From positions 1-64,000 of IMG/VR virus record IMGVR_UViG_3300044656_000252: a stretch of DNA of 64,000 bases; one strand, written 5' to 3'. The stretch is from a virus. Lineage: Duplodnaviria; Caudoviricetes. Position numbers and translations under genes: made by a program. The notes under the pieces were generated by a model that saw only the letters and a program-made list of their open reading frames with translations, ran no database searches and had not been told where the DNA came from. Below, one piece after another: positions 3,448 through 64,000 of the stretch. Position 1 is the first letter of the stretch; every line of letters begins with the position of its first letter.

Positions 3448-4181
3448 TTCGTCCTCGTCGGGTCGAAGGTGCGCTCCTTCGCTGGGTCCTCGTCTCCGAA
3501 CGTCCGCTCCCGCCACCACCAGAACTTCGGGCTGAGGATCGAGTCCTTGATCTCCAACCGCTCGGCTGGGTCGTCGAGACTGTCCTCGGGCTTGTCGGTG
3601 TCGTAGACCGCCGGCGGGAACCGGTCGACGCCAACCGGTTTGATCATTACGCAACCCTGGTCCAGCACCGTCACCGCGCTGATGTAGGCCGGCGTCCGGT
3701 CGTAGTAGACGCGCCGCCCCAGCAGTTGGTCGGCCGCTGACACCGATGACGTCCAGTCGATCGCGTCGTGCCGCAGCAACTCGTCGACGACTTGTGGGAT
3801 GCGTCGGAGTGCCGCCAGTGGATCGGAGGCGATCTGCCCTTCCCAGCACTGCTGCCGGGCCAGGGACACAGTCCATTCGCCGCCCGCTCGGATCTCGTCG
3901 CGGCCCTTCCAGTCGTTGACGTCCCGCCGGTTCTCGGTGTGGAACGCGACATCGACCTGGACGCGGTGCCCGTTGAACCATGCCCAGTGGCTGCCATCGC
4001 CGGACACGTCGGCCCACCACCAGAGCTCTGGTCGGCGGTTCAGCTCGTCGGCGTCAGCCAGGACGACCGAGCCCCGGTGGTCGCGGCCGAACTCGGCGAT
4101 GCTGGGCCGTCGGGGCACGGAGAGCCCGGTCGGCACGTAGTTGTTGCAGCGGTCGCGGTACTGCGGCTCAGGCGAGGGCAC
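3444..4181 (-). CDS. Hypothetical Trp-rich phage protein
   Basis: Coupled ORF in operon; start uncertain. Confidence 0.65.
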   Translation of the reverse strand: MPSPEPQYRDRCNNYVPTGLSVPRRPSIAEFGRDHRGSVVLADADELNRRPELWWWADVSGDGSHWAWFNGHRVQVDVAFHTENRRDVNDWKGRDEIRAGGEWTVSLARQQCWEGQIASDPLAALRRIPQVVDELLRHDAIDWTSSVSAADQLLGRRVYYDRTPAYISAVTVLDQGCVMIKPVGVDRFPPAVYDTDKPEDSLDDPAERLEIKDSILSPKFWWWRERTFGDEDPAKERTFDPTRTK

Positions 4182-5121: not shown

Positions 5122-5255
5122 GACTGCTTCCTTCCGCACACCGCCGCGACCACCGTGGTCACTAGCAGCGCGCCGACCCCGGTGACGGCCCACCGCCACT
5201 CACCCAGCCCGCCGAGCGCGACCAGCGGGTGCAGCGGCCTCGTCTCCCGGCTCAC
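5118..5255 (-). CDS. Small membrane protein (45 aa, MSRETRPLHPLVALGG...)
   Basis: Read by eye; GTGA overlaps at both ends; hydrophobic segment. Confidence 0.5.
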   Translation of the reverse strand: MSRETRPLHPLVALGGLGEWRWAVTGVGALLVTTVVAAVCGRKQS

Positions 5256-5581
5256 TCCGACACCTCCGTCGTGATCTCCACCCGCAGGCACCCGTCATCG
5301 TCGGTCGTGATCTGGATGCTCCGGCGCTCGTCCGCGCGACGCTCCGAATCGGACAGTTCGAGGACGTTCGAGCCGGTGCGCCGGATCAGCGCCGCCACGA
5401 TGTCGCTGAGCACGTCCACGAAACCGGTCGGCGCGACGATGTGGCCGCGCTCGCGCAGCCAGTCCAGGAACCAGGCCGGTTCGGGCACGCCAAGCACGCC
5501 GTGGGCGCGGTGGTTGTATTCGGCCAGCGTGTCGTACACGGCCTGCTCGACGGCGGTCCGCTCGGGCTGCTGCTCGCTCAT
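5252..5581 (-). CDS. Hypothetical protein
   Basis: ATGA coupling, SD GGAGG. Confidence 0.6.
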   Translation of the reverse strand: MSEQQPERTAVEQAVYDTLAEYNHRAHGVLGVPEPAWFLDWLRERGHIVAPTGFVDVLSDIVAALIRRTGSNVLELSDSERRADERRSIQITTDDDGCLRVEITTEVSE

Positions 5582-5736
5582 CGGTCCTCCCATACGTGCC
5601 GCCGTCGCGTCCGCCCGTCGCCGCGGAGCACGGCGACCGCGAACCACAGCCACCACACCCGGAAGCGTGTGACGTTCGATCGGTAGATCCCCGGCCGGGC
5701 CTGGAACGGCCGCGACACCTCGAACTCGACGATCAC
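5578..5736 (-). CDS. Small hypothetical protein
   Basis: Coupled overlaps on both sides. Confidence 0.45.
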   Translation of the reverse strand: MIVEFEVSRPFQARPGIYRSNVTRFRVWWLWFAVAVLRGDGRTRRRHVWEDR

Positions 5737-6335
5737 GGTGCCACCGCCTGAATCACCTGGAACATCGACGTCGTTTCGTGCCGGACCACCTCGAACCCGG
5801 CGTGCTCGACCAGCGCCCGATAGCCGGGCATGTCCCACGCCCACGTGTGGAACTCGTAGTGCGACTGGCCGGTCTCCGTGAACGGCGAGCTGGCCACGAT
5901 CACCCTCGCGTGCGACCGCACCCAGGCCAGGAACTCGTGAGGCGTGACGAGGTGCTCCAGGAACTCAGTGCACACCGCCAACTCGCCCCACTCGACCTGC
6001 CCGTGCACGGCGTCCCCGTACCGGACGTCGACACCGCGCTCCAGCACGGCCGGGTTCACGTTGGAGCGCTGGAGGTCGTAGCCCCACATCGGCACGTCGT
6101 GCTCGAACGAGTACGGCTGGAGCAGCGAAAGGAGACCGCCGTCGCCGCACCCGAGGTCCACAACGGACCGCACCCCGTACTGGTCGATCGCGTCCCGCAC
6201 CATGTCGGCGGCGAGCACGAGCCGGCCGCGGTGCGCCTCCTGGTCGACGTGCGGCGCCCGCTCGCGACCCTCGTACCAGGCCGACGTCGTGCACTCCGGC
6301 ACGGTGCCCGGCTCGAACAGCTGCCACTCGGTCAT
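5733..6335 (-). CDS. Class I SAM-dependent methyltransferase
   Basis: VVDLGCGDG motif I; CTEFLEHL post-II motif. Confidence 0.9.
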   Translation of the reverse strand: MTEWQLFEPGTVPECTTSAWYEGRERAPHVDQEAHRGRLVLAADMVRDAIDQYGVRSVVDLGCGDGGLLSLLQPYSFEHDVPMWGYDLQRSNVNPAVLERGVDVRYGDAVHGQVEWGELAVCTEFLEHLVTPHEFLAWVRSHARVIVASSPFTETGQSHYEFHTWAWDMPGYRALVEHAGFEVVRHETTSMFQVIQAVAP

Positions 6336-7021
6336 CGGATCAGCTCCCGGAGACACGCCACGTCCGCGTCCGCCTGAAGCTGGAGCCAGTCCTCGTACCG
6401 ATGCCGGTCCTCGTCGAACTGCTGCTGCGAGTTCGTCTCGCGGTACGAGTCGTCCAGCTCCGCCTTGCCGGCCGACGGGTGCAGGTGCTCGATCACCACG
6501 TCCGGCAGGTACCGCAGCCGTCCGATCCGCTCGCCGAGCACCTTCCACGCGTTGTCCACGTACAGGTGCACCAGACCTCCCGGCACCATGTAGCCCAACG
6601 CCCGCACGATGTCCGAGGTCATCGCGATCTGCGTCGGCAGGTTCTGCCGCTGGAACAGGTCGTCCCCGTACACCAGGCCGGTGCCCATCTCGTCGAGCAC
6701 GTCGACCATGCGCCGGTCCCAGCCGGCGGTGCGCGGCCGGTGGTCGTCACCGAGGAAGCCGACCATGCGGTAGCTGCGGCCATAGTTCAGCGCCACCTCG
6801 TTCAGCGTGCCGCCAAGCCGCAACCGATCGGTCATCAGCACCCATTGCGTGAACTCGGGTGCGCCGATCTCGCCGTACCCGGGTCGCTGCGGATCGTCGG
6901 CGTCGAGCGCAACCACGATGTCGGCCGCGCCCGTGGCGGTCTCGGCCCACGCCTTCAGCAGCTCGCGCACGTTCTCTGGCCTGCCACGGCTCGGCACGAT
7001 CATCAACAGGTCAGCTGCCAC
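6332..7021 (-). CDS. Glycosyltransferase family 2
   Basis: IVPSRGRP, VGFLGDDH, HLYVD, VIEHLHP motifs typical of phage GT-A enzymes. Confidence 0.85.
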   Translation of the reverse strand: MAADLLMIVPSRGRPENVRELLKAWAETATGAADIVVALDADDPQRPGYGEIGAPEFTQWVLMTDRLRLGGTLNEVALNYGRSYRMVGFLGDDHRPRTAGWDRRMVDVLDEMGTGLVYGDDLFQRQNLPTQIAMTSDIVRALGYMVPGGLVHLYVDNAWKVLGERIGRLRYLPDVVIEHLHPSAGKAELDDSYRETNSQQQFDEDRHRYEDWLQLQADADVACLRELIR

Positions 7022-7352
7022 TGTCGGACTCCTTCTTGCCTTCGATCTCGTCGGCGACCTGCCGCAGCAATGCGACAACGTCCGAACCATCCCCGCGCCC
7101 GAGCACCATCGGCGCGCCGACACCGACGGACACTGCCACCGTCGCCAGCAGCTCCTGCCGGACACACCGAAGCTCAACCGTGTCCCGGTCGGGATGCGTC
7201 AACCTCATGAGGTCCCACCGCCGGTCGGCCATCTCCGCCAACTCGGCGCTGCTCAACTCAACCCGGCCACCCAACCTGAGCACGAGCACGCCCACCAGCC
7301 GCATCGCGTCAGTCAGCTCCCGCTCAAGGTCCTGCGCACGCCGCCCGATCAC
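7011..7352 (-). CDS. Hypothetical protein
   Basis: Coupled ORF. Confidence 0.55.
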   Translation of the reverse strand: MIGRRAQDLERELTDAMRLVGVLVLRLGGRVELSSAELAEMADRRWDLMRLTHPDRDTVELRCVRQELLATVAVSVGVGAPMVLGRGDGSDVVALLRQVADEIEGKKESDSGS

Positions 7353-7591
7353 AACTGGTCCTTCGGCACAAACACCTGGACCCTCGCCAGAGCCTTCGCG
7401 GCGGCAGCGAAGGTCCTGCCTAGACGGATGAACGCGGCAGCCGAATCGGGGACCGTCGATGACGGCTGCAGGTTGGCGGCGACGTCGTCGCACGCCTTCG
7501 CCACGTCGCCGAGGATGTCGCCGAGATTGACGATCGTGCCGTCGGGCTGCTCGATTGGTGCTACAACCCACCGCTGCTCGTCGTTGCTCAC
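7349..7591 (-). CDS. Hypothetical protein (MSNDEQRW...)
   Basis: GTG start overlapping the TGA of the +1-frame tail of the upstream gene. Confidence 0.6.
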   Translation of the reverse strand: MSNDEQRWVVAPIEQPDGTIVNLGDILGDVAKACDDVAANLQPSSTVPDSAAAFIRLGRTFAAAAKALARVQVFVPKDQL

Positions 7592-8134
7592 GGCTGCTCC
7601 CCGTGGCCTCGGTGCGGCCGGGCACTCGCGAGCATCACAGCCTGCGCCCACCCGTCCTCCGCGTCGCCGATCAGTTCGCCATCGGGACAGTCCGGCACCA
7701 CCGCGACGTTCGACGTCAGCTTCAGCAGCGACTCGACGTAACGCAGGGCTCGGGACTGTCACCAGGTCAGCGGCCCGGATGCACCGCTCCAGCACCGCGA
7801 TCCGGTCGCCCTCGCACCACCAGTCCACGTCGCCGGCCAGCTCCGCACGCGGGTGCCAGAAGTCGGCATGCACGTCCACGATGGACCGGCACGAGCACGG
7901 CAGGGCGGCAACGTGCTCCAGCCGCTCCGCGATCCCCACCGAGCAGGGCATCAGCACTACGTACAGCCCGCAGCGGTCGGTCTCCAACTGGAGACTCTGG
8001 CTGACCACCACCAGATCCGGGATCAGGCGTCCTTGCTCCTCGAAGACCCGCCGCCCGCGCACCGGGTCGGTGACATCGTTCGCGCCGACGAAGTTGATGC
8101 GCCGCGTCGGCTGCGGCATCCCAGGCGTCGTCAT
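7588..8134 (-). pseudogene. GT-B N-terminal-like protein split by a +1 frameshift at ~7740 (or a recoded gene)
   Basis: 547 nt = 182 codons + 1; removing one T of GCG TTA CGT gives VTVPSPAYVESLLKLTSNVAVVPD, resembling the neighbouring GT4 (VTVTTEPLAEVMREFNRDVRIVPN); ends in a GTGA overlap. Confidence 0.65.
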
Positions 8135-9105
8135 GGCTTCAGCGCCTCCTCCCAAAGCCCAGCGTTCGCCTCGATCGTGTGCTTCGCCGCCAACGCCTTG
8201 GCCGCCGCGCCCATCGACTCCCGCAGTTCCGTGTCTCGCACCAGGTCCCGCACGTACCGCACCCAGTCACCGGGCTTCCGCACCAAGAAGCCCGTCTCGC
8301 CGTGTCGCACGAACGCCGCGTACGGGCCGACGTCGCTGGCCACCACCGGGATCCCCAGCGCCGCATACACCAGCGCGGTGACCCAGCTCTTGGACCGGTT
8401 GAACACGTGGTCCCGCAACGGCAACAGCCCCACGTGAAAGTCGATCGCCATCAGGAACGGGACCACGCCCTGCACCCACGGCGTCCACCGGTACCGATCC
8501 GCCGGCAGGCGCATGAACGGCCCGTAGTCCCCGCCCATCGTGTGCACCTCGAAGCCGCGCTCCTTCCGCAGCAGGCGCCGCAGCTCGTCCTCCATCACGC
8601 TGAGGTCCATGTCGTGCGTCGGCGAACCACCCCACCCGACCGTGACGATGTCGGACCGGCGCGGCGGCTCGTGCTCCAACAGCCACGAGGGGAGCAGGTT
8701 CGGCACGATCCGCACGTCCCGGTTGAACTCGCGCATCACCTCGGCCAGCGGCTCTGTCGTCACCGTCACCCGGGACGCCGCTGCCGCGTTCGCCCGGATG
8801 TTGTCCAGCACGCCCTGCTGCTTGTACCAGCGGTGCGCGACCGCATTCCGGGCGTCCACACGGAACAGATCGTCGTCGATCTCGTACACCAGGTGCCGGC
8901 CCTCGCGCGCCCACTTCTGCCACGTCCCCGTCGGGCCCGGCAGGTGCACCCGCTGTCCCACGATCACGTCCGCCTCCGGCGCGTCCCGGGTCAGAAGTGG
9001 ATGCACCGAAGTCGTGTGCCCGCGCGCAGCCAGCTCGGCCATGGGCAGCTCCATGCGCCAGTAGCCGCAGCCCTGGATGTCCGCCGACCAGCCAAAGATC
9101 CTCAC
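8131..9105 (-). CDS. Glycosyltransferase, GT-B fold (GT4-like)
   Basis: GCGYWRMELP, VYEIDDDL, VGWGGSPTH, FNRSKS..ALGIPVVASDVGPY..VRHGETGFLV. Confidence 0.9.
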   Translation of the reverse strand: MRIFGWSADIQGCGYWRMELPMAELAARGHTTSVHPLLTRDAPEADVIVGQRVHLPGPTGTWQKWAREGRHLVYEIDDDLFRVDARNAVAHRWYKQQGVLDNIRANAAAASRVTVTTEPLAEVMREFNRDVRIVPNLLPSWLLEHEPPRRSDIVTVGWGGSPTHDMDLSVMEDELRRLLRKERGFEVHTMGGDYGPFMRLPADRYRWTPWVQGVVPFLMAIDFHVGLLPLRDHVFNRSKSWVTALVYAALGIPVVASDVGPYAAFVRHGETGFLVRKPGDWVRYVRDLVRDTELRESMGAAAKALAAKHTIEANAGLWEEALKP

Positions 9106-37124: not shown

Positions 37125-38096
37125 ATGCTCGGTCTGGACTACTCGGGAGGGCGACCGTCCGGCGCGGCCATCTACGCCGCCAGCTATCGGTTCGTCGTGC
37201 GGTACCTGGAGAACGGCCTCGGTGGCGGCCGATACAACCTAACTGCAGCCGAGTTCGCCGACCTACGCGCCAACGGCGTCGCGGTCGCGCTCGTCTGGGA
37301 GTCACAGGCCAACCGCGCAGCAGCTGGCCATGACGCCGGCGTCGCCGATGCGCGAGCGGCGCTCGCCGCGGCCGATGCTGTCGGCGCGTCAGGCTGGCCG
37401 ATCTACTTCGCGGTGGACTTCGACATCCCCGACTATGCGCCGGCCGCCATGTCGGCGCTCGCCAAGCTCGGCCCCGTCGGGGACTACCTCGCGGGCGCCG
37501 CCAGCGTGCTCGGGCACAGTCGCACCGGCGTGTACGGCGGCTACTACGCGGTTTCCCGGGCGCTGGACGCCGGGCTGGCCAGTCTCGCCTGGCAGACAGA
37601 GGCCTGGTCCGGCGGCCAGGTCGACCCGCGCATCCACCTCCTTCAACGCCTCGGCACCGTCGTGGTCGACGGCGTCGAGTGCGACACCAACGAGGCCCGG
37701 CAGGCCAGCTTCGGGCAGCAACCCCCGGGAGCGGTTCGCTCCCCGAACAGTGAGGACGACGACATGTGGAAGTTTCTGGTCGACGAGGGAACCGTGCAGA
37801 CGGACGGTTCCTACACCCGGTGCGCCGAACTCCTGCCCACCGCCGAGCTCATCGGCACCAGCTGGGCCGACATCAGCGCCAAGCTGGCCGAGGCCAAGGC
37901 CGGCGGTGCGCCGGCAAGCGTGCGCGGCGTCGACACCGCCGTGTTCGACGACTACGAGAAGAACTCCGATGCACACAAGGCCGCCACCGCCGCCCTCGCC
38001 AAGCTGACGAGCGGCGGCGGCGGAGTGACGGCCGCGCCGACGTCGCTCGCTTTCGATCTCGCCGTGACCGGCACGGCCACCCCTAAGACCTCGTGA
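37125..38096 (+). CDS. Endolysin, DUF1906 (GH25-like) glycoside hydrolase
   Basis: GLDYS..FVVRYL..VALVWE..PIYFAVDFD..GVYGG..WQTEAWS..CDTN. Confidence 0.85.
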   Translation: MLGLDYSGGRPSGAAIYAASYRFVVRYLENGLGGGRYNLTAAEFADLRANGVAVALVWESQANRAAAGHDAGVADARAALAAADAVGASGWPIYFAVDFDIPDYAPAAMSALAKLGPVGDYLAGAASVLGHSRTGVYGGYYAVSRALDAGLASLAWQTEAWSGGQVDPRIHLLQRLGTVVVDGVECDTNEARQASFGQQPPGAVRSPNSEDDDMWKFLVDEGTVQTDGSYTRCAELLPTAELIGTSWADISAKLAEAKAGGAPASVRGVDTAVFDDYEKNSDAHKAATAALAKLTSGGGGVTAAPTSLAFDLAVTGTATPKTS

Positions 38097-38122
38097 TCAC
38101 GACCACGGAAGGGAAACCCGCC

Positions 38123-38461
38123 ATGTCCAAGTACGCCAAGGCGATCGCCGCGATCGTGATGGCCGTCCTCACCGCACTCCAGACCGTCGCCACCGCGCCG
38201 TTCACCATGCAGACCGGTGCCACCATCGCCGTCGCGGCGCTGACCGCAGTCGGCGTGTACCTGGTGCCGGTGCTACCTGGCATCTACGAGTGGCCGAAGA
38301 CCATCGTCGCCGTGCTCCTGGCCGGTGCGCAGGCCGCCGTGCAGGTCGCCGGCAGCAGCGCGATCACCACGCAGGGCTGGATCACCATCGTCATCGCCGC
38401 GCTCGGCGTGGTGGCGGTGCAGGTGGTGCCGAACAAGGTTACGGCACGCCCGACGCCTTGA
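38123..38461 (+). CDS. Holin
   Basis: KYAKAIAA.., four short TM segments, VPN ending; follows lysin. Confidence 0.8.
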   Translation: MSKYAKAIAAIVMAVLTALQTVATAPFTMQTGATIAVAALTAVGVYLVPVLPGIYEWPKTIVAVLLAGAQAAVQVAGSSAITTQGWITIVIAALGVVAVQVVPNKVTARPTP

Positions 38462-39667: not shown

Positions 39668-40633
39668 ATGACGGCGATGGAACCGCAGCGGGCCGGGCGA
39701 CTCGGCCGGCTCCCGAACGACCCGAGCAAGCCGCGGCTCAAGCTCGCGCCGCACCTGAACACGGCGGTGCCCCCGAACCCCGCGGTGGTGGACTGGCTCT
39801 CGCGGGTCGGGTCGTGGCCGATGTACGGCAACGACCAGTACGGCGACTGCGTGTGGGCGATGATCGGACACCTGATCGAGGCGTTCTCCACGTACGGCGG
39901 CGGCAGCACCGTCACCGTGCCGGAGCAGGCGCTGCTCGACGGCTACACGGCGGTCACCGGATTCGACCCGTCCGACCCGAGCACCGACAACGGCACCGTC
40001 ATCCAGGACGCGCTGGCCTACTGGCTGAAGGTGGGCATCGCCGGGCACAAGATCCTGGCCTACGCCGAGGTCGACATCCACAACCAGTCCGAGGTGGACG
40101 CGGCGATCAACGTGTTCGGCGCCCTGTGCCTCGGGGTGAACCTGCCGAACTCCGCGATGGACCAGTTCAACGCCGGCCAGCCCTGGACGGTGGTCGCCCC
40201 GGACGGCGGTATCGACGGCGGCCACGCGGTGCCGGTCGGCTACTACAGCACGCCGGGCGAGACCGTGCGCGTGGTGACGTGGGCGCGGACGCAGGACGTG
40301 GCCGACGCGTGGTGGTCGCAGTACGTCGAGGAGGCGTGGATCGTCGTCGCGCCGGAGTGGCTGGACGCAACCGGTCACAACCCGGAGGGGATCGACCTAC
40401 ACGGGTTGGGTGAGGACTTCGCCGCGCTGACCGGGAGGCCCAACCCGTTTCCCGTCCAGCCCACCCCCGGTCCTACTCCCGTCCCTGCTCCGCCGGTTGC
40501 GGACGCTGCTGACCAGGCTCTGGTCGCTGCTCTCCGGCCGTGGCTGAGCGAGCACCACGTCGGAGACAACCGGCACGCGGTGCACGCCGTGGAGACGTGG
40601 ATGGCGGCGAAGGGACTGTCGCTGGCCTCGTGA
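39668..40633 (+). CDS. Papain-fold (C1-like) cysteine peptidase
   Basis: VDW..GNDQYGDC (catalytic Cys), DNGT, GGHAVPVGY (His), VVTW. Confidence 0.8.
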   Translation: MTAMEPQRAGRLGRLPNDPSKPRLKLAPHLNTAVPPNPAVVDWLSRVGSWPMYGNDQYGDCVWAMIGHLIEAFSTYGGGSTVTVPEQALLDGYTAVTGFDPSDPSTDNGTVIQDALAYWLKVGIAGHKILAYAEVDIHNQSEVDAAINVFGALCLGVNLPNSAMDQFNAGQPWTVVAPDGGIDGGHAVPVGYYSTPGETVRVVTWARTQDVADAWWSQYVEEAWIVVAPEWLDATGHNPEGIDLHGLGEDFAALTGRPNPFPVQPTPGPTPVPAPPVADAADQALVAALRPWLSEHHVGDNRHAVHAVETWMAAKGLSLAS

Positions 40634-42346: not shown

Positions 42347-42724
42347 ATGCCGCACGACCAGCAACACCTCGCCCGCATCGTCGACCAGCTCGCCGGAGGA
42401 GACATGGCCCCGACACAGCTCGCCGAGCTGCCCGACGACCAGCTCGCCGCCGTCGGACGGATAGCGGCGCAACGACGCGAAACCGATCAGGACGTGGTCG
42501 GACAGGTCGCCGCCGAGTTCAACCAGAACCGCGGCCGGCCGTGGCGGGAAATCGCCGCCCTGCTCGAGCAGGAATCGCACGCGACCATCTACCGCTGGGC
42601 GCGCCCGTTCCTTGCGTCCCCAGACTCAGTGTCAACGGCAGGTTCACAACCAGTGAACCCCACGGCATCTCAGCCCCATCTACTCGAACCCAAGATCGAG
42701 CACCTACCGCTGGGGAGCGACTGA
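42347..42724 (+). CDS. Putative HTH regulator heading the transfer operon
   Basis: RPWREIAALLEQESHATIYRWA. Confidence 0.55.
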   Translation: MPHDQQHLARIVDQLAGGDMAPTQLAELPDDQLAAVGRIAAQRRETDQDVVGQVAAEFNQNRGRPWREIAALLEQESHATIYRWARPFLASPDSVSTAGSQPVNPTASQPHLLEPKIEHLPLGSD

Positions 42725-42726
42725 CC

Positions 42727-43533
42727 ATGAAAATCACTGGTGACGCCGAGCGCACCCTCGCCGTCATCTCGATCGGCGTGTGGGGTGTCGCGCTCGTCGT
42801 CATGGCCGTATCCGCCACGACGGCGGCCGACCTGTTCCGGCTGCACAGCGCGAACTGGACGCAGGGCCTGGCGCTCGGGCTGGCCATCGACGCGGCGCTC
42901 GCGGTGGCGCTGGTCGGCGACAAGGCGCTCGCCCAGCTCGGCCTCTCGTCGCGCTGGGGCACCGCGCTGCGGTGGGCGGCGACGGTGATGTCGTTGGTGC
43001 TGAACTGCTCGGCCGCGTGGCTGGCCGGCGACGCATTGGGCGTGACGCTGCACGCGATCCCGCCAGCACTGTTGATCGTCCTCACCGAGGCCGCGCAGTC
43101 GTACCGGACCGCGCTGGCCGAGCATCACATGAAGATCGCCGCCGAGCAGGAGCGGCTCGCCGCCGCTGCACGCCAGAAGGCGGAGCAGGAGGCACAGGCC
43201 CAGCGCGAGCAGGAGAAGCGGCAGCGGGACGAGGCTGCTGCAGCGCGCCGGCGGGAGCGCGAGGCCACTGCGGCGCCGTCGAAGCCGCTGGTGCTGGTGA
43301 AACCGACTGTCGGGCTCGACGTGCCGGAGGACGCGTCACTGAAGGACAAGGCCCGCGCATGGTTCATGCGAGAGGCGTTCAAGACCGACCGACACTGGGA
43401 GTCCATCTCGGCCGTCGAGTGCGACCGGGCGGTCGGCGCTTCCGAGGGCATGAGCAAGAAGCACATCAAGGGCTGGCGTGCCGAAGTCGCCGCTGCCATG
43501 GGCAACTCCGGCACCGCCGCGGCCGGGAACTGA
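42727..43533 (+). CDS. DUF2637/SpdA-SpdB-like plasmid-spread membrane protein
   Basis: Four TM helices (LAIDAALAVAL, SLVLN, LHAIPP.LL..L.E), then coiled coil and C-terminal helical domain. Confidence 0.75.
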   Translation: MKITGDAERTLAVISIGVWGVALVVMAVSATTAADLFRLHSANWTQGLALGLAIDAALAVALVGDKALAQLGLSSRWGTALRWAATVMSLVLNCSAAWLAGDALGVTLHAIPPALLIVLTEAAQSYRTALAEHHMKIAAEQERLAAAARQKAEQEAQAQREQEKRQRDEAAAARRREREATAAPSKPLVLVKPTVGLDVPEDASLKDKARAWFMREAFKTDRHWESISAVECDRAVGASEGMSKKHIKGWRAEVAAAMGNSGTAAAGN

Positions 43534-43544
43534 AGGGAAAGAAC

Positions 43545-43745
43545 ATGAACGTCTACCTGGTGTGCGCGATCCTCGGCGTGCTCGCCGTCGTCGCCTTCGG
43601 CCGCGGCTGGACCAAGTCCGGCTTCGCCGCGCTCGTCCTGTTCGGCGTGATGCTCGCGACCACCGCCATCGGCCCGAACCTCCAACACGGCGTGTCCACC
43701 GGCGTGGACAGCGCCATCGCCACCGTCAAGTCGTTCTTCAGCTGA
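43545..43745 (+). CDS. Small two-TM membrane protein (Spd-like)
   Basis: SD AAGGG; hydrophobic. Confidence 0.7.
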   Translation: MNVYLVCAILGVLAVVAFGRGWTKSGFAALVLFGVMLATTAIGPNLQHGVSTGVDSAIATVKSFFS

Positions 43746-43764
43746 CCATCCGAGGAGTCCCGCC

Positions 43765-44034
43765 ATGATCACCACCACCGAGCAGGCCGTCGCGTTCTGG
43801 GCGGCCGAGGCCGCCAAGGTCGACCGACTCATCACCGACCTCGACGACCTGATGCCCGCCACCCACAACGGCGAGACGCCGTTCACCGAGCAGACCCGCG
43901 AGGACGTCGAGGGCGCGCTGTTCCAGGCCCGCCTCGCCGCGGACACCGTGCTCGGTGCCTACACGCGCGTGCTGCACCAGGAGCGGGCGAACCCGCCGCA
44001 GCCGTCCGGCCCGTACAGCCAGCCGCGTTACTGA
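43765..44034 (+). CDS. Hypothetical protein
   Basis: SD GAGGAG. Confidence 0.65.
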   Translation: MITTTEQAVAFWAAEAAKVDRLITDLDDLMPATHNGETPFTEQTREDVEGALFQARLAADTVLGAYTRVLHQERANPPQPSGPYSQPRY

Positions 44035-44058
44035 TCCGGTGAAGGAAGGAGTCCCCCG

Positions 44059-45396
44059 GTGGTTACCGTCGCGCCCGAGCAGCCGCAGCGGGAGAGGTGG
44101 ATCTCTCCCCATGCGCTGCTGGGCGCTACCAGCGCGGGGAGCGCCGGCATGACGACGGCTGGGCTGATCGCGGGACCGACAGGTGTCGTGGTGGTGACGG
44201 CGGCGGGCGCGTTGACCGCTGGCGGGATCGCGGCGGTGCGCAGGTTCGCGCCGGGCGCGGCGGAGAAGCTGGGGCTGCGGAAGCCGGACAAGAAGGCCGA
44301 CAAGAAGTCGGACGGCAAGTCCAAGGCGAACGGCCCCGGCAAGGGCCTCGGGGGCAGGGGCGGTCTCGGTCGTCTCGGCCTGCTGGGTGCCGGCGGTCGC
44401 AAGAAGGGCGCCGGTGACGGTGGCGGCCGGAAGCGTGGCGGCGGCCTGCTGGGGATGGCCCGCAACATCGCCGGCAAGGGAGCCGGCCTGGCCAAGCGGG
44501 GCGCGAACGCCGCAGCGAAGAAGGGCGCTGGCCTGCTTGGCGGCAAGGACCCGACTCGCAGGAATGCCCGCGGCCGTAACGGGTCTGGGCCGGCCGGCGG
44601 GAAGCAGCGTGGTGTCGGTGGCCCGACCGGTCGTGGTCGTGGGGCCGGTAGCGGCCCGGGGCGCGGCAAAGGCCCCGGCGGCAAGAGCAACAGCGGCAAG
44701 GATCGGAGCAGCGGCCGCGGCTTGGGGGGCCGGCTCGGCCGCACCGCCGCAAGCCTTGTCGGCTGGGGCGCGCGCCGCTTGTTCGGCCTGAAGCGTCCCT
44801 CCGACACCAACTCCGCATCGACGGGGCATGGCGGAGGGAAGCCGAAGGACAGGAAGAAGCGCACCAAGGGCTCGGGGCTGCTCGGTGGCCGGGGCGCGGA
44901 GCGCATGCCGGACAGCGCGAGGCCCAAGGACCGCAAGGGCAAGAAGGACAAGAGCCGCACGAAGAACGTTCCGCCGGGCCGCGGGCCGCGGCGGGAGGTC
45001 ACAGCAGGACAGCCGGACCGGAGTGGCCGGCGCGCACATGGAGGAACGACGATGCCCGATCCGTTCGCGAGTCGCCGCGAGGCGATCTCGGGGGCCGCAC
45101 CGCTGGAGATCAACAAGGCTGGTGACGTCGCCGACTACGTCAAGCACGCCCCCGACTACGCCGAAGCGCAGGCCCGCGGGTGGCTGCGTGACGCCGACAC
45201 GATCGTCGAGAAGGTGAACCTGAACCCGGACTTCACCGACGCCCTGAAGGGGTTCGCGAACACGCAGCTGGCCGCCGTCCAGGCGGTGCGTGAGTACGGG
45301 GCCGTGTTCGAGCGCAGCCACGCCGAGAAGCTGCGGCGGACGCGCGACCGGGACCCGCGTGAGGCCATGTGGGACGTCGACCGTCACCGCGACTGA
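44059..45396 (+). CDS. Plasmid-transfer accessory protein (TraA-like): TM + Gly/Lys-rich linker + C-terminal domain
   Basis: SD AAGGAG; C-terminal ..AVFERSHAEKLRR..DPREAMWDV; directly upstream of the FtsK-like gene. Confidence 0.65.
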   Translation: MVTVAPEQPQRERWISPHALLGATSAGSAGMTTAGLIAGPTGVVVVTAAGALTAGGIAAVRRFAPGAAEKLGLRKPDKKADKKSDGKSKANGPGKGLGGRGGLGRLGLLGAGGRKKGAGDGGGRKRGGGLLGMARNIAGKGAGLAKRGANAAAKKGAGLLGGKDPTRRNARGRNGSGPAGGKQRGVGGPTGRGRGAGSGPGRGKGPGGKSNSGKDRSSGRGLGGRLGRTAASLVGWGARRLFGLKRPSDTNSASTGHGGGKPKDRKKRTKGSGLLGGRGAERMPDSARPKDRKGKKDKSRTKNVPPGRGPRREVTAGQPDRSGRRAHGGTTMPDPFASRREAISGAAPLEINKAGDVADYVKHAPDYAEAQARGWLRDADTIVEKVNLNPDFTDALKGFANTQLAAVQAVREYGAVFERSHAEKLRRTRDRDPREAMWDVDRHRD

Positions 45397-45418
45397 CCGA
45401 TCCGAGACGAGGACGACC

Positions 45419-47905
45419 ATGACCGCGCCAGCCACCCAGGATGCGCCGCCGACTGACGAGAAGCCGGCCAAGGCCAAGAAGCAGAAGCCCGAGGCGACCC
45501 CGCCGAAGCGCGGTCTCGGTGACGCGCTGCGCGAGTTCGAGCCGGACTTGCGCTGGTTCCTGCCGGCGGTCGCCGCCTGCCAGGCGTACACGCTGGCGGC
45601 GATTCCGGTGTGGACCGGGCTGCCGTCCTGGGTGCTCGTCGCGCCCGGCGTGGCATCGACGGCGGCGGGTGTGTGGCTGGCCCGGCACTTCTACAAGGCC
45701 GTCGAGTACGGGCACGAGCAGCGGCGCGCGGCGCAGGCCATCGCGGTCGGCGCCGGCGTGCTGATGACCGCGTGGATGGTGTTCGCCGGCAGCGGGAACC
45801 CGCTGCGGCCGGTGGCGCTTGGCGCGCTGCTGCTGGTGGCGTTGGTGTGCGGGGCAGCGTTCGGCGCCCTGCACACCCGGGCCCCGTCGGTGAAGGCCGA
45901 GGTCGAGGCCAAGCGCACCGAGGTCATCGAGGCCAACTCGGAGCGCGTGGCCGAGGTCGAGCTGGCCAAGACCCGGGACGAGTGGCAGGAGATCGCCGAC
46001 CAGGCCCGACCCGGGTGCGGCATCACCGTCGTCGGCCGGGCGGACCAGCCGGGTGGCTTCTACGTCGACTTCGCTGACAACCCCACCAAGCCGATCAAGT
46101 GGGTGGGATTCTGCGACATGGTCGGCTCGATGCTGTCGATCGCCTCGGCGCGACTGGCGCCGTCCGGGATCGTCCTGTCTGAAGGCGACCTGAGCCCGGA
46201 GCAGCCGGAGGGTATGCCGGCGCACCTGTTTCGGCTGCACGTGTTCACGTCGAACGAGTTCGCCCAGAGCCTGCCGTACCCGATGGACCGGCCGGTCGGC
46301 ACGATCGTCGAGCCGCGGATCATCGGCCGCTACAAGGACATGTCGCCGCTGGGGGTGTGCCTGTGCGGCAACCACGGCGTGATGTGCGCCGGCACCGGCG
46401 GCGGGAAGACGGTGTGCGCGAACTGCCTGATCGCCGGGGTGCTCGAGTGTGGCGACGCCGAGGTGTGGATGGGTGGCACGTCGAAGCTGACGCCGTTGGC
46501 CTACCCGTGGCTGCTGCCGTGGCTGCTGGGTCGCACCACCCGACCGGTGATCCAGTACGTGTCGGGTGAGGACCCGCGCAGCGTCACCGAGATGCTCGCT
46601 GAGCTGTACCGGGAGGCGAAGCGCCGCAACTCGAAGCTGGGCCGCCGGTCGAAGCACGCGCCGTCGAAGGACGAGCCCGCGCTGGTGTGCTTCATCGAGG
46701 AAGCGTCCGACCTGCTGATGAACCACAGCGAGGTGCGGGTCCCCACGTTCGACGGGCACAGTTGGAACGCCTCGCAGATCTTGAACGCGATCGCGCAGAT
46801 CGCCCGCGCCGCGAGCATCTCGATCTTCCTGCTGACCCAGTTCGGGATCATGGACGCGCTGGGCACCCACGGGTCGCTGATGCGCCGCAACCTGACGATC
46901 CGAATCTGCGGCCGCACCTACACCTACAGCGATGGCCGGGACATCCTGACCGCGATCAGCGCACCTGACACGACCAAGCTGAAGGACAACACGCTGCTGG
47001 TGCAGCCCGCGATGGAGGAGCCGCGGGTGATGGCGGCGAAGGCGTACTTCCTGGACGGGGCGGAGACGATCGGCCCGGTCGCCGAGAAGTACACAGCACG
47101 CCGCACGGAATGGGAACCGCCGCTGGCTGGTGACGCTTTCCGCGAGCGGTGGAGCGCGCTGCGGCTGCCCGAGTTGGCCGCTATCGCAGCGGATGAGGGT
47201 CTATCGTGGCCCGGAAGTGTGCACACAGGGTCACGAGCCGCGGAGGTAATTGATCAGCCGGCGCTGCCGGTCGCGGCTCCCGATAAGGGGAGCGACACCA
47301 TGTCGGATGATGTGAAGGCGATGCTGAGCGATGCGCAGGCCCAGATGGATGTGGCGATCGAGTCGGCCCGCAAATACGGCCCGCTCGGCCCGCTGATGGG
47401 CGAAGTCTTCAACAAGGTGAATGCCGAGAACGCTCCCGAGTTCATTCCCGCCGGACAGCTCGCGTACGGCCTGGGGCGTGTCCTCAAGGACGGGGACTGG
47501 GACACGGCGGGGGACACCCTGGCCGGGGAGCTGGCGGGGAAGCCGTGGTACCTGTCCCCGACCCGTCAGGAGGGGACGTTGGGGTGGCCGCGGGACCTGA
47601 TCCTGGGGACGATCCGCGCGTTCCTCGAGGGACGCCCTGTCCCCGGCGAGGGGACGACCGAGGGGACGGACCTGTCGGCTGGGGAGACCTTGGGGGTCTT
47701 GGTGCGGGAGCTGGCCGGGGACGACCGCGAGTTCGTCACCGCGGTCGACGCCGCCGCCATGGTCGGGATGAGCGCGGCGGCGTTGCAGCGGATGCTCGAG
47801 GGCGAGCCGTTCAGGCTGCCGATGCAGCGACCCCGCACGGTCACGGATGGTGAGCGGCCGCGTGGCTGGTTCGTGGCGGATCTGCGCCGCGCTGCTGGCA
47901 TGTGA
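45419..47905 (+). CDS. traB: FtsK/SpoIIIE-family conjugative DNA translocase (TraB/TraSA-like)
   Basis: N-terminal TM helices; Walker A HGVMCAGTGGGKT; Walker B VCFIEEA; LTQ; RRNLTIRI; C-terminal wHTH-like ..RPRGWFVADL. Confidence 0.8.
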   Translation: MTAPATQDAPPTDEKPAKAKKQKPEATPPKRGLGDALREFEPDLRWFLPAVAACQAYTLAAIPVWTGLPSWVLVAPGVASTAAGVWLARHFYKAVEYGHEQRRAAQAIAVGAGVLMTAWMVFAGSGNPLRPVALGALLLVALVCGAAFGALHTRAPSVKAEVEAKRTEVIEANSERVAEVELAKTRDEWQEIADQARPGCGITVVGRADQPGGFYVDFADNPTKPIKWVGFCDMVGSMLSIASARLAPSGIVLSEGDLSPEQPEGMPAHLFRLHVFTSNEFAQSLPYPMDRPVGTIVEPRIIGRYKDMSPLGVCLCGNHGVMCAGTGGGKTVCANCLIAGVLECGDAEVWMGGTSKLTPLAYPWLLPWLLGRTTRPVIQYVSGEDPRSVTEMLAELYREAKRRNSKLGRRSKHAPSKDEPALVCFIEEASDLLMNHSEVRVPTFDGHSWNASQILNAIAQIARAASISIFLLTQFGIMDALGTHGSLMRRNLTIRICGRTYTYSDGRDILTAISAPDTTKLKDNTLLVQPAMEEPRVMAAKAYFLDGAETIGPVAEKYTARRTEWEPPLAGDAFRERWSALRLPELAAIAADEGLSWPGSVHTGSRAAEVIDQPALPVAAPDKGSDTMSDDVKAMLSDAQAQMDVAIESARKYGPLGPLMGEVFNKVNAENAPEFIPAGQLAYGLGRVLKDGDWDTAGDTLAGELAGKPWYLSPTRQEGTLGWPRDLILGTIRAFLEGRPVPGEGTTEGTDLSAGETLGVLVRELAGDDREFVTAVDAAAMVGMSAAALQRMLEGEPFRLPMQRPRTVTDGERPRGWFVADLRRAAGM

Positions 47906-47955
47906 GTCGTGCCGCGGGTGCCCTCCGGTCGTGCTCGGCTGGAGGGCATCGCTGT

Positions 47956-48203
47956 GTGGACCACCGCGTGGACCGGGCGTGGGCCGGCGTGGTCGTCGGC
48001 GTGGACCGGGTGTGGACCACCGGTCGGTGTGGACCAGCCGGTCCATGGCCGGTGACCTGGGATGGTCCACGTTGTCAACGATGTCACGCGAGTGGTCCAC
48101 GTGGACCAGCAGGACAGGTGCCGCAAATACCTGACCTGCGGAAACAGTCGCAACACCCCCTGTGTCGGGTGGTCCACGCAAACAGGCGTGGACCGTGTGG
48201 ACC
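47956..48203. repeat. GTGGACC/GGTCCAC repeat array (clt-like locus)
   Basis: 8 forward copies (47956, 47968, 48001, 48012, 48029, 48101, 48188, 48197) and 3 inverted (48064, 48094, 48171), plus degenerate copies. Confidence 0.85.
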
Positions 48204-48224
48204 ACAAGCGAGGAGCACACGCTG

Positions 48225-48980
48225 ATGATGGGCCGAACGCACGCGTTGTCCGGGTGGTGCGCGGGGCTACTGGTGGCTCCGTTGCTCGGCGCGGCCAGCC
48301 CGGCGCAGTCACTGTTAGTGGCGGCGACGGTGGCCGGCTGGAGTCTGGCGCCGGACCTGGATCACCCGGGCGCGGTGGCGACGCGGTGGGGCGGCTGGGT
48401 GACGGGCTGGTTGTCGCTGGCGCTGCGGGAGCTGTCGGCAGTGGCGTTCGAGGCGACGCGGACTCCCCGGGATCGGGACAGCGAGGGGACGCACCGGCAC
48501 CTCAGCCACACCTTCGTGTTCGCCGCGGTGGTCGGCGGGGTCACCGCGCTGGGGACTGCCCTGTCCCCTTGGTGGGGAGTGCTGCTCCCCGTGACGGTGG
48601 GGACTCTGCTGGCCGGGAGGTCCCTGGGGAGGTGGGTGCTGGGGGCGGGGGCTGTCCCCGTGGTGTGGGGACTCCTGGCGGGTGGGGACGAGCTGTCCCC
48701 CGTGCGCGGCTGGATCGGCGTGGCGGTCGCTCTTGGGTGTGTGGTGCACATCTTGGGGGATGCTCTGACGCGTGCGGGTGTGCCGTTCTTGTGGCCGCTG
48801 CCTATTCGTGGCCAGCGGTGGTTCCGGATAGCCACTCCGTATGGCCTGCGCTTTCGTGCTGGTGGTGGTGCTGAGCGTCTGCTGGTCTTTCCGTTGTTCG
48901 TTGTCTTGGGTGTTGCTCTCTTTCCGGGTGTTCTGTCGGTCGCTGTCGGTGTGGTGACCGGTGCGATAGGGGCTCGTTAG
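48225..48980 (+). CDS. YdjM-like membrane metal-dependent hydrolase
   Basis: MMGRTH..LAPDLDHP..HRHLSHT..HILGDALT..GVP.LWP. Confidence 0.88.
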   Translation: MMGRTHALSGWCAGLLVAPLLGAASPAQSLLVAATVAGWSLAPDLDHPGAVATRWGGWVTGWLSLALRELSAVAFEATRTPRDRDSEGTHRHLSHTFVFAAVVGGVTALGTALSPWWGVLLPVTVGTLLAGRSLGRWVLGAGAVPVVWGLLAGGDELSPVRGWIGVAVALGCVVHILGDALTRAGVPFLWPLPIRGQRWFRIATPYGLRFRAGGGAERLLVFPLFVVLGVALFPGVLSVAVGVVTGAIGAR

Positions 48981-50452: not shown

Positions 50453-50878
50453 ATGAGGACAATCGACCCTAACGACCCCACCCCGGCGAGCCGGCAAATC
50501 GCCGACGCCATCCGCGACGCGATCCGCACCGGCGAGATCGCCGAGGGCGAGCGCATCCCCGGCCAGGCGGCGCTCATGGCCCACTTCGGCGTCGCCAAGG
50601 GCACCGTCGACACCGCCCTCACCGCCCTCAAGACGGAGGGCCTGCTGATCGGTCGGCAAGGCGCGGGCGTGTATGTCCGGACGAGCACGAAGGACGGCAC
50701 CGCCGAGGTTGAGCGATCCGCCACGGTGCTCTACGACGCCAGCCTCGGTGCCCTGACGGTGCGGCTCGATATGACTGACGACGAGCCGCCCGGCGACTTC
50801 TGGATCCGCTCGGTCAGAGTGAAGCTCGTATATCCGGAGGGCTCGTCCAACTGGGGCGAGCGGTACCTCTCTCGCTAG
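50453..50878 (+). CDS. GntR-family wHTH regulator without UTRA domain
   Basis: QIADAIRDAIRTGEIAEGERIPG..FGVAKGTV..L.TEGL..GRQGAGVYV. Confidence 0.88.
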   Translation: MRTIDPNDPTPASRQIADAIRDAIRTGEIAEGERIPGQAALMAHFGVAKGTVDTALTALKTEGLLIGRQGAGVYVRTSTKDGTAEVERSATVLYDASLGALTVRLDMTDDEPPGDFWIRSVRVKLVYPEGSSNWGERYLSR

Positions 50879-55259: not shown

Positions 55260-55555
55260 CACCGCTCTCCGTTCTGCTCGGCGCGCTGCGCCATCAATTG
55301 CTTGAGCTCCTCGGTGCAGGCCTGCCGGTGCTGGGCGTCGGCCTCTTGCGCCACGTCCAGCTTCGCCAGCGTGGGGAACTTGTCCGCGTTGCGGGTCGCC
55401 GAGATCAGCACCTGCCTGACCACGTCGGAGTCCTTCGGGTAGTCGTCGTTGCCGCCGAGCTGTCGCGGGTTGGCTTGGCCCCAGCGGGAGCCGTGGACGT
55501 GGGCGAGGACGATGGCCTCGCGGAGCAGTCGCGCCGTGCGCGGGCCGATCTTCAC
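55259..55555 (-). CDS. Hypothetical protein
   Basis: Coupled ORF. Confidence 0.6.
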   Translation of the reverse strand: MKIGPRTARLLREAIVLAHVHGSRWGQANPRQLGGNDDYPKDSDVVRQVLISATRNADKFPTLAKLDVAQEADAQHRQACTEELKQLMAQRAEQNGER

Positions 55556-56484
55556 TCCGCGCCTCCCGTCTCGGCCGGCACGGCGGTGTCCGGGCCGGCG
55601 CTCCAGCCGCTGCGCACCAACGACTGCCAGCCCTCCGGCACCCGCGAGGCGTCCGTCCGCCACGCGGCGAGCTGTTCCCCAACGCGCTGCAGCGTCTCCA
55701 GCGCCTGGTGGTCTTCGGGGTCCAGCCAGAACATGCCGGCGAGGTGGCGAGTGGCCGAGTAGAAGCTGGCCAGTTCCTCCCGCGCCGTGTCCCGCTCGCT
55801 GGTGAGCCGGTCGACCTCGGCGACGAGTTCGGTGATGAGTTCGGACACGCGGTTGCCGCGCCGATGGTGCACGCCCAACGCCCGCCGGTTCTCCAGATCC
55901 ACCTCGCGGAAGTGGTCGCTCCAGAAACGGCTGTTCCGGCCGTTCGCGTCGGCCAGTTTCTGGAGCCGGACGACTTGGTTGATCAGGTCGTCGGTGCTCG
56001 TGCTCGCCGGCAGGCCGAGCGCCTCGGCGACGGCCAGTTCGAGATCGCCGGCCTTCGCCGCCCTCGTCAAGAGGCGCTCGCGTTCGGTCTCCAGCAACGG
56101 CACACGCGCAGCCGCGAGTGCCTGTTCGGTGGTGGCGTACCTGGTCTCCATGTGCGCGCACACGTCGTCGTCGTGGTTGCAGTCGGTGCCGTCGCAGTCG
56201 TCCGGCTGGACGTAGTAGCGGGCTGCTTTCGCGATGTGGTTGAGCAGGTCCAGGTTGGTGATCGGCTTGTCGTCGAGCCAGGTGACGACGGTGCGGCCGT
56301 CGTGCCCGTGGATCGCGACCAGGTCGGCGACGTTGTCGTAGACGACGGTCGACCGAAGCTCGGTCTGCCAGCGGATGACGCAGGTGCCGTCGGGCCACTG
56401 GACGCCGAGCGCGACGCGGCCGGTGCCGGATGCGCCGGTCACGTCCTCGCGGCGATCCAAGGCGAACAGGCGCGGGGCGGTCAT
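55552..56484 (-). CDS. Conserved phage hypothetical (F.L.R.EDVTG.SGTG.VA.GV..PDG domain + coiled coil)
   Basis: Recognisable phage N-terminal motif ending IHGHDGRT. Confidence 0.7.
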   Translation of the reverse strand: MTAPRLFALDRREDVTGASGTGRVALGVQWPDGTCVIRWQTELRSTVVYDNVADLVAIHGHDGRTVVTWLDDKPITNLDLLNHIAKAARYYVQPDDCDGTDCNHDDDVCAHMETRYATTEQALAAARVPLLETERERLLTRAAKAGDLELAVAEALGLPASTSTDDLINQVVRLQKLADANGRNSRFWSDHFREVDLENRRALGVHHRRGNRVSELITELVAEVDRLTSERDTAREELASFYSATRHLAGMFWLDPEDHQALETLQRVGEQLAAWRTDASRVPEGWQSLVRSGWSAGPDTAVPAETGGAE

Positions 56485-62470: not shown

Positions 62471-62502
62471 GCCACACTACTGCCACAAGCCGCCACAAAC
62501 AA
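62471..62502 (-). promoter_or_regulatory. Sigma70-type promoter overlapped by three TGTGGC direct repeats
   Basis: TTGTTT-17-TAGTGT on the minus strand; GCCACA at 62471, 62482, 62492. Confidence 0.55.
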
Positions 62503-62664
62503 GCAATCGAGCGGAGATCTTTCCGATGGTTCACACCCCGACCACACCACGAGCCAGTGCGACCGTGGGCAAAATGCTGGCCAATCCGCCGCCCCAGACC
62601 GCCGTCAGCGCGTCAACACCCGCGCCCGCGATAGATCAGACCGGCTACGCCGCCAGCGCGCCTC

Positions 62665-63321
62665 TCATCCCGCCGGACGCAGAGCCCGGCGCCGGTCCTC
62701 ACCCTTCAGCGCCACCTGGCGGGACATTTCCCTCAACCGCGACGCCACCCGCTCGCCGAGCCCGTTGCGGAGCTCCGCGCCGCCGAGGTTGCTGGTGACG
62801 ATCGTGGCCAGGTGGTGTTCGTACCGGTGGTTGATCACCCGGAACGTGATCTCCTCCGTCCACTCCGACGTCTTGGCCGCGCCGAGGTCGTCGAGCAGCA
62901 ACAGCGGGATCTTCTGGTAGCGGGCCATGGCTGCCTCGGGGTTGCCACGCTCCTTCGGCCGCAGTTCGGCGTAGAGGTCGGCGGCGGTGATGGCGGCCCA
63001 GCTGACGGCGACGCCGCTGTGGGCGATCTGCCGGATCGCCCCGAACGACTCGTGTGTCTTGCCCGTGCCAACCGGCCCGAGCAGGAGCAGCGAGGGTCCT
63101 GTCGCGACGATCGGGTTGAACGCCCGTGCCGACTTGGCCGCGCTGTGGCACAGCTCGACGGCCCAGGCGCGCACGCCGGGGTCGGTGACGGTGGCCTCGC
63201 GGTAGTGGACCGGCACGTCGGCGAGGGCCGCGTCGGCGTTGGCCTGGTTGGTCTCGACCCAGTGCGGGTCCAGGCCCGGGTAGGCGTCGATCAGGTCGAG
63301 CAGCGCGAGTTCGTGCATCAC
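62665..63321 (-). CDS. DnaC/IstB-like AAA+ helicase loader
   Basis: LLLGPVGTGKT, LLLLDDLGA, VINHRY..TIVTSNL..GERVASRL. Confidence 0.92.
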   Translation of the reverse strand: MMHELALLDLIDAYPGLDPHWVETNQANADAALADVPVHYREATVTDPGVRAWAVELCHSAAKSARAFNPIVATGPSLLLLGPVGTGKTHESFGAIRQIAHSGVAVSWAAITAADLYAELRPKERGNPEAAMARYQKIPLLLLDDLGAAKTSEWTEEITFRVINHRYEHHLATIVTSNLGGAELRNGLGERVASRLREMSRQVALKGEDRRRALRPAG

Positions 63322-64000
63322 AGGTCCTCGTCGTAGATGGAGTGATCGGTCGGGCTCCGGAAGGGCTGATAGCCGCCGGCGGCGGCGCGCAGCTGGGGCC
63401 GCTGGGGCTCGTCGTCCCAGCAGCCCTTGTTGAGCCAGGTGGCCGGGTGCTTGGTGTAGGTCGGGTCCTGGCCGGCCCGCTCAGCGGCGTAGCGACGCAC
63501 GCCGGCGATGAGCTCGTCCGCGGTGGCCCCGTCCTTGATGGCCTTGTCCCAGGCGCGGCGGGCGTCCTTCTTCCCGACCTTCTTGGGATAGACCCTCCAG
63601 AACTCGTCGAACTGGGCGGTCGTGATCGCCACCGGCGGCGGGGGAGAGAGATCTATTGGCAGTTCAATTGGCAGTTCACTGGCAGTTGTAGCCGGGGTGA
63701 CCTGCGGTTGTAACGGTTGTGGGGCCGTGACAAACGGCGTGCCGCGCCGTGACTCACGCACTGCCGCGCCGTGACTCACGGCCTGCGACGCCGTGACCGT
63801 CACGTCCTCGCGCGCCGTGACTGTCACGCTCTCCGAGACCGTGACATCACGGTCTGGCGCACCGTGACCGGCGGCCTCCTGAGCCCTCCGCTCGCGGTGC
63901 CGCCGCTGCCGCTCGCGGTCGGCCAGGCGCCGCCGCTCCCGGTGCTGGTCGACCACCGACGGCCCGGTGTTGACGACCTCGAGGTGCAGCCGCCACACCA
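63318..64000 (-). CDS. Phage replication initiator (5' end outside the window)
   Basis: C-terminal FDEFWRVYPKKVGK..A..AW..KHPATWLN..CWDDE; upstream of the DnaC-like gene. Confidence 0.85.
   Translation of the reverse strand, partial: VWRLHLEVVNTGPSVVDQHRERRRLADRERQRRHRERRAQEAAGHGAPDRDVTVSESVTVTAREDVTVTASQAVSHGAAVRESRRGTPFVTAPQPLQPQVTPATTASELPIELPIDLSPPPPVAITTAQFDEFWRVYPKKVGKKDARRAWDKAIKDGATADELIAGVRRYAAERAGQDPTYTKHPATWLNKGCWDDEPQRPQLRAAAGGYQPFRSPTDHSIYDEDL
63725..63868. repeat. Iteron-like CCGTGAC repeats inside the initiator gene (probable ori)
   Basis: Copies at 63725, 63747, 63769, 63791, 63815, 63839, 63862; spacing 22-24 bp. Confidence 0.75.

Follow-up and report, generated by a model that had tools for sequence, protein, structure and literature searches.

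A complete temperate siphovirus genome carries, between its lysis and early genes, a co-oriented operon that is, by its sequence features, a genuine actinomycete TraB/clt/Spd-type DNA transfer system and an integral, selected part of the phage. The operon lies in a 64,000-nt window (the whole stretch of DNA analyzed here) that constitutes bases 1–64,000 of a 76,231-bp contig (IMG/VR record IMGVR_UViG_3300044656_000252; Duplodnaviria, Caudoviricetes); a 127-bp end overlap closes this contig into a 76,104-bp circle, and the record is classed as having direct terminal repeats and as 100% complete. From these genes, and by analogy with known plasmids, we lean towards a phage that would spread both as virions and by TraB-mediated mating coupled to spread through the mycelium.

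TraB motor and clt-like repeat array

The largest gene of the operon encodes a predicted translocase with an intact motor, containing Walker A (AGTGGGKT, aa 324–331), Walker B (FIEE, aa 425–428), Q474 and R490; the Walker A, Walker B, Q-motif and arginine-finger positions are all conserved. A Foldseek search with its AF2 model (pLDDT 90) returned the FtsK motor as best match (2ius, E 2e-13), followed by TcpA and then EccC. In the model, the final 200 residues at the C-terminus fold into two winged-helix-like domains, the last of which superimposes on the winged helix-turn-helix (wHTH) of Rex with a modest Z of 7.9 (rmsd 2.2, 66 aligned), most top rows being wHTH proteins; Foldseek gave no match to the C-terminal domain at E<=0.001. 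These results agree with the original prediction, made from the letters of the window, of a membrane-anchored FtsK-like ATPase with a wHTH-like C-terminus. In two trees, both quick, built without bootstrap and uncertain in their deep branches, TraB fell inside a 26-member clade (SH-aLRT 95–96) and outside the chromosomal FtsK and EccC clades; a grouping with non-conjugative FtsK or type VII secretion proteins, against which the prediction was to be checked, appeared in neither tree, and the known Tra proteins were not monophyletic. The gene is under purifying selection (dN/dS 0.27–0.32); the corresponding values for spd, the two-transmembrane (two-TM) gene and traA against the relatives L004 and L005 were unreliable (poor alignment or few sites) and were not used. 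Relatives were recovered with a hand-made motif, searches of viral contigs with the single protein and of genome contigs with alignment A1 having returned none, and the tally of 26/301 includes the unpublished genomes G067, G235 and G278; nothing else claimed here draws on these three or on G009.

The dense repeat array noted after traB was confirmed as 11 copies of GTGGACC (Table 1). No other 7-mer cluster in the genome is as over-represented, and when the spacer was simulated 2000 times with a Markov model, at most seven copies arose; the relative L263 keeps nine in a diverged spacer. Across homologues, the repeat motif that follows traB covaries with the TraB C-terminal domain in a near-diagonal pattern. 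Specifically, the Actinokineospora homologue (G004), 39% identical overall and 62% in the C-terminus, is followed by the same GTGGACC x11; G019 and G165, with C-termini 67% alike, have a common GGACGG core; GTGGCAG is common to L012 and L014 and occurs, at a greater distance downstream, in G003 and G005 too; and G012, G303, L006 and G128 each have a motif of their own. The same scan recovers TGACACC, the validated repeat bound by TraA of pWTY27 (PMC3583192), from that plasmid, and finds six TGACACC copies in provirus G306, where the C-terminus resembles that of pWTY27. The array consequently behaves as expected of a predicted cognate clt of the last TraB domain, and the covariation could in part reflect shared ancestry of linked DNA. 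Since a chromosomal FtsK control (cF004) also has a five-copy 7-mer downstream, weak arrays (log10 P above about −9) were taken as no evidence by themselves; an apparent array in G143, which looks like a coding pentapeptide-type repeat, was not counted. Separately, a TGACCTGC-type word lies inside the array (48130–48145), and similar words follow traB in G004, G012, G019 and L263, whatever their repeat motif; it is possibly a second, shared binding site.

Operon layout and place in the phage genome

All six open reading frames named in the original gene list are present and co-oriented, with lysis genes upstream and early genes downstream as described, and a conserved 89-aa gene was overlooked in that list (Table 1). 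A 320-bp gap separates the end of traB from the YdjM gene, which occupies the same position in L005, L263, the P0008 contig, G019 and G165. Pfam was almost blank on the module proteins (no match for the helix-turn-helix (HTH), Spd and TraA proteins; FtsK at E 0.025), so that the Spd and TraA labels needed profile comparison and folds. Profile comparison with plasmid genes (pWTY27, pJV1, pSQ10, pZL12) is in line with both labels. A hidden Markov model (HMM) of the 268-aa family matches pWTY27 (2e-24) and the pJV1 protein at 666–1781 (7e-18), with no match to the pSG5 protein tested, and an HMM of the TraA-like C-terminus matches the gene that immediately precedes traB in pSQ10 (1e-9), Hiyaa (3e-9), P1312 (1e-3) and pZL12 (pZL12.72c, 2e-3); ESM Atlas adds a weak lead linking the protein to PF28214 TraA-like. 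Based on these DUF2637 and TraA C-terminal homologies, the predicted operon corresponds, gene for gene, to the transfer regions of plasmids. Among the smaller genes, the two-TM protein has equal size and position in four relatives, and the HTH gene has homologues at the head of the same operon in L004, L005 and prophage G165, a relative's gene at its position giving a weak HTH_23 match.

Table 1 Features of the transfer module and of the surrounding phage genome (window positions)
Feature	Position	Strand	Basis or remark
Small putative HTH regulator, operon head	42347–42724	+	Kor-like role inferred; no Pfam match in this copy
SpdB2/DUF2637-like membrane protein with coiled coil, 268 aa	42727–43533	+	hhalign 98.8%, E 6.7e-17 to pWTY27 DUF2637 protein
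66-aa two-TM protein	43545–43745	+	Hydropathy; Spd79-like by size and position only
Conserved 89-aa protein	43765–44034	+	Homologues upstream of traB in L004, L005, L006, G003, G073, L012, L015
TraA-like partner, 445 aa	44059–45396 (start possibly 44149)	+	Gly/Lys low-complexity N-terminus and conserved ~115-aa C-terminal domain
TraB-type FtsK-like DNA translocase, 828 aa	45419–47905	+	N-terminal membrane helices, motor, two C-terminal winged-helix-like domains
clt-like array	47956–48204	.	11 x GTGGACC(A/G), 8 forward and 3 reverse
YdjM-family membrane protein, directly after array	48225–48980	+	Pfam YdjM E 1e-21
GntR-family regulator, candidate repressor	50453–50878	+	Pfam GntR E 7e-16; role inferred
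GntR-UTRA regulator (TraR/KorA/KorSA-type architecture), far from module	1584–2312	+	Pfam GntR and UTRA; pZL12.80-like, E 1e-11
Siphovirus virion module	15375–37111	+	TerL, portal, scaffold, major capsid, neck, major tail, 1140-aa tape measure, minor tail; PHROGs and Pfam
Endolysin and probable holin	37125–38461	+	PHROGs endolysin E 3e-26; holin match weak
Phage replication initiator and IstB/DnaC-type loader	62665–64000 (initiator to 64265)	-	phrog_270 E 4e-34; IstB E 1e-14

The element is by its gene content a temperate siphovirus, and probably an integrating one: a tyrosine integrase, a divergent HTH gene pair (cI/cro-type switch), phage replication genes and a long tape measure are all present, together with an ERF recombinase and with CCGTGAC iterons near 63720–63850 that accompany the replication initiator. 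Those virion-module genes that were translated have no internal stops. The integrase, the only one in the genome, lies outside the window at 74,795–75,988 (PF00589 at 74,867–75,451, E 3e-12). Genuine P-loop proteins called in the genome are limited to TerL, TraB and the DnaC-like loader. The genome gave no match to RepSA (PF20199, which as a control matches in five host-family genomes; RepAM and prim-pol profiles were not searched) or to ParA/ParB of pZL12, though it may hold an unrecognized replicon, and no tRNA genes were found. The host is probably a filamentous member of the Pseudonocardiaceae, because six of the eight genome matches to the conserved TraB motif belong to this family (the others being one Pseudonocardiales metagenome-assembled genome and one unclassified actinomycete).

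The surroundings of the module hold neither an integrase nor RepSA, a ParA-type ATPase or att-like repeats in the flanks, the longest word that the flanks share being 12 bp; the prediction that it has neither att repeats and an integrase of its own nor a second replicon therefore stands, the sole integrase being outside the window. The GC content at third codon positions (GC3) of the core module genes (0.86–0.97) is like that of the virion genes. Related phages with the same synteny, whose existence the original prediction had proposed as a check, were found in independent assemblies: the order lysis-operon-YdjM-early recurs in two other phage contigs, and its operon-YdjM-early part in a third. 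In one relative (L005) the flanks, spd and the array are ~100% identical to ours, in contrast to 72–92% for traA and traB, which shows that the core has been swapped and that the recognition end and the array were retained. The same operon also occurs in a different phage context (L004) and in the chromosomal prophage G165, which has unrelated head and tail genes; no integrated copy of exactly our phage was seen, and G165, with an integrase 38% identical and the same tra operon, is integrated. More broadly, 10 of 19 long phage records, chosen for terminase similarity only, contain an FtsK/TraB-like gene (four of them being proviruses), with several TraB lineages at various positions. The subfamily is found as well on chromosomal contigs without detected virion genes (G003, G004, G073 and G013); RepSA was not found near the TraB homologues in G002–G005 or G073, and an assignment of these to integrative and conjugative elements of actinomycetes (AICEs) is not supported.

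Two observations concern the integration and switch regions. In the integrase, K-x-x-R replaces the usual H-x-x-R, and the remaining catalytic R, K, H and Y positions are apparently intact. An exact 24-bp direct repeat starting GCCACAAGCCGCCACAAAC occurs at 62482–62505 of the window and at 70411–70434 of the genome; this second occurrence separates the divergent cro-like and cI-like genes, with a partial inverted copy after it. The repeat is a probable operator or promoter.

Proposed routes of spread and competing explanations

Drawing analogies from pSVH1, pWTY27 and pZL12, we propose the following mechanism. A free phage circle would be available once the prophage has excised, or in the interval between infection and lysis or integration. 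TraB, anchored in the membrane as hexamers, would recognize the GTGGACC repeats with its last winged-helix domain and drive the circle, double-stranded and unnicked, into a hypha in contact with its own, where the SpdB2-like, small-TM and TraA-like partners would help it to cross septa in the recipient mycelium, and the circle could then integrate or turn lytic. In Streptomyces, double-stranded DNA is delivered by TraB hexamers that bind to clt repeats of 8 bp (PMC12857230), and its spread through the mycelium requires Spd proteins (PMC4447253).

Several results weigh against spread by both routes. The step of prophage excision and replication without lysis is weak, there being no known way for it, because the genome has no RepSA and no ParA and only lambda-like replication. 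No attP/attB core was found in 301 family genomes, where all matches were integrase homologues or due to chance. The operon is not immediately preceded by a divergent GntR gene, unlike those of pSG5, pJV1, pWTY27 and pIJ101. The TraB clade is sister to pZL12.71c, pSQ10 TraB and the P1312 and Hiyaa proteins with an SH-aLRT of 87–94, below 95; PIS136, Hiyaa and pZL12 have no strong array right after traB; and the host assignment has TraB homologues as its single line of evidence.

The main competing explanation, which we hold to be unlikely and which sequence is unable to separate from mating, is that the module does not mediate mating between mycelia and that phage DNA is moved by it solely within a single mycelium, either across septa to neighbouring compartments during infection or into compartments that become spores. 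TraB and Spd proteins do also drive intramycelial spreading, actinophage SpdB2 homologues have been proposed to help spread phage DNA (PMC4447253), and plaque-isolated phages (Hiyaa, P1312 and PIS136) retain such genes; moreover, this explanation does without a pathway for non-lytic excision, and the genome has none. Set against it, TraB and clt are the core of primary transfer between mycelia, and the homologous locus of pZL12 is described as a conjugation locus. A distinctly less probable explanation is that the pump has another use, such as segregation of circles, mobilization of the host chromosome from an integrated clt, or exclusion of competitors (with YdjM and Spd). The authors of the P1312 report interpret its FtsK-like gene as acting in DNA segregation and propose no conjugation (PMC4569894), our phage genome has no recognized partition system, and TraB is known to mobilize chromosomes (PMC12857230); it is not obvious, however, why a segregation motor should require partners of the SpdB2-like and TraA-like kinds arranged as in plasmids, and the repeats are clustered right after traB in the manner of a clt. 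That the module is an AICE or a piece of a plasmid nested in the phage, or else a chimeric assembly, and is carried as passive cargo is very improbable and largely refuted, since the occurrence of the subfamily on contigs without virion genes and the exchange seen in L005 are outweighed by the single integrase, the lack of RepSA and att repeats, the virion-like GC3, identical junctions in independent assemblies, purifying selection on traB and the recurrence of TraB-like genes at differing positions in many related phages.

Under the two-route reading, were the module to work, temperate phages of filamentous actinomycetes would gain a second, non-lethal and receptor-independent way to spread, and may mobilize the host chromosome, including antibiotic gene clusters. 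By extension, a widespread and overlooked class of actinophages that integrate in the chromosome could be true conjugative prophages, which excise without lysis and pass through TraB to other mycelia, independently of receptor and virion and possibly dragging host DNA; we advance this tentatively, as a possibility in some doubt. If true, it would contradict the view stated in a 2025 review that conjugation is not known for any phage-plasmid or integrated prophage. One large survey of phage-plasmids sought conjugation via mating-pair and relaxase genes (PMC7969092) and would miss elements of the present kind, because TraB systems lack such genes. Conjugative transfer has been reported for the streptococcal prophage Phi1207.3, which uses a different system (PMC4260502). 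Cultured phages with homologous genes (PIS 136, the Hiyaa group and P1312) make the idea testable now.

Comparison with known systems and further genes

The original prediction held that a dual life style was not known to be described for a virion-forming siphovirus. This part fails, since pZL12/phage ZL12 of Streptomyces (GQ919031; Zhong et al. 2010, cited in PMC3583192) and pFP4 (Chen et al. 2012, cited in PMC4170104) are described as plasmid-phages that combine virions with conjugation. What stays undescribed is a chromosome-integrating version: literature searches turned up no integrating prophage reported to carry TraB. Like our phage, pZL12 joins tailed-phage virion genes to an FtsK-like transfer gene with adjacent partners, has its pZL12.71c in the TraB sister clade and carries the TraA C-terminal domain in pZL12.72c. 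It differs in being an autonomous plasmid with ParAB, whereas our phage has no ParA and has a tyrosine integrase and a cI/cro-type switch; its virion genes are unrelated, and direct TraB similarity falls under the search thresholds used.

With the plasmids pSVH1, pSG5, pJV1, pWTY27 and pIJ101 and with Nocardiopsis pSQ10, the module has in common a membrane-anchored FtsK-like ATPase with a C-terminal wHTH, the short repeats just after traB, the SpdB2/DUF2637 and TraA-like genes upstream, and the lack of a recognized relaxase or type IV secretion system. Unlike those plasmids, the present system sits on a virion-encoding phage, has no adjacent divergent TraR, has a TraB that forms part of a distinct Pseudonocardiaceae subfamily and bears two wHTH-like domains, and has repeats in both orientations. 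The AICEs pSAM2, SLP1 and pMEA300 (PMC2440964) resemble the phage in their tyrosine integrase, FtsK-like transfer protein and GntR regulators and in the Pif-like Nudix hydrolase that it encodes, but the phage has no RepSA, measures 76 kb with virion and lysis modules, and has a long plasmid-type TraB rather than the short type found beside RepSA in G004. Of the earlier plasmid/AICE-type label, the plasmid part holds: the module is plasmid-TraB-like, as distinct from an AICE of the pSAM2 type. Candidate regulators are the operon HTH gene, the GntR gene at 50453, the GntR-UTRA gene at 1584 and a Nudix hydrolase gene at 72,001–72,552, a set reminiscent of pSAM2's KorSA and Pif (PMC2440964). The Nudix gene adjoins that of a 416-aa TPR-containing regulator, near the integrase (the pair at genome 72001–73795; L001:12001–13795), and Nudix genes are also present on pZL12 and PIS 136.

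Among cultured actinophages, Saccharomonospora phage PIS 136 has a homologous TraB (31% over 85%) and a TraA-like gene ~16 kb away, and Mwe-JY05, Streptomyces phage Hiyaa and Thermobifida phage P1312 have a homologous TraB with a TraA-like gene directly upstream; FtsK-like/TraB homologues occur furthermore in Streptomyces phages Galactica, Spocter and Keanu. In these phages, in contrast to the present reading, the FtsK-like genes are annotated only as DNA translocase or segregation protein. Two of the records show peculiarities of their own. PIS 136 has a second, truncated copy of the TraB motor directly after full traB (L002:22609–23643), and 'Microcystis phage Mwe-JY05' (L003; PP395638) combines an actinomycete-type TraB and a TraA-like gene with actinophage-like annotation, so that its stated cyanobacterial host looks doubtful. 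In addition, G303:C2 (92,539 bp) and G315 (89,998 bp) each carry terminase and TraB-like genes and are probably further conjugative phage-plasmids.

Elsewhere in the window, three loci are of separate interest. Upstream of the packaging module, 2348–9105 holds apparent glycosyltransferase, sugar epimerase and methyltransferase genes, judged by translation starts only, and possibly serves DNA or capsid glycosylation. After the lysis genes, 39668–40633 encodes a 321-aa protein (phrog_19005) that is common across actinophage contigs and has Gln-Cys and His motifs suggesting a papain-like protease. Finally, the product of 55552–56484 is possibly a protein acting against CBASS (cyclic-oligonucleotide-based antiphage signaling), its L005 homologue having a precomputed Pfam match to Acb5 (PF26761).

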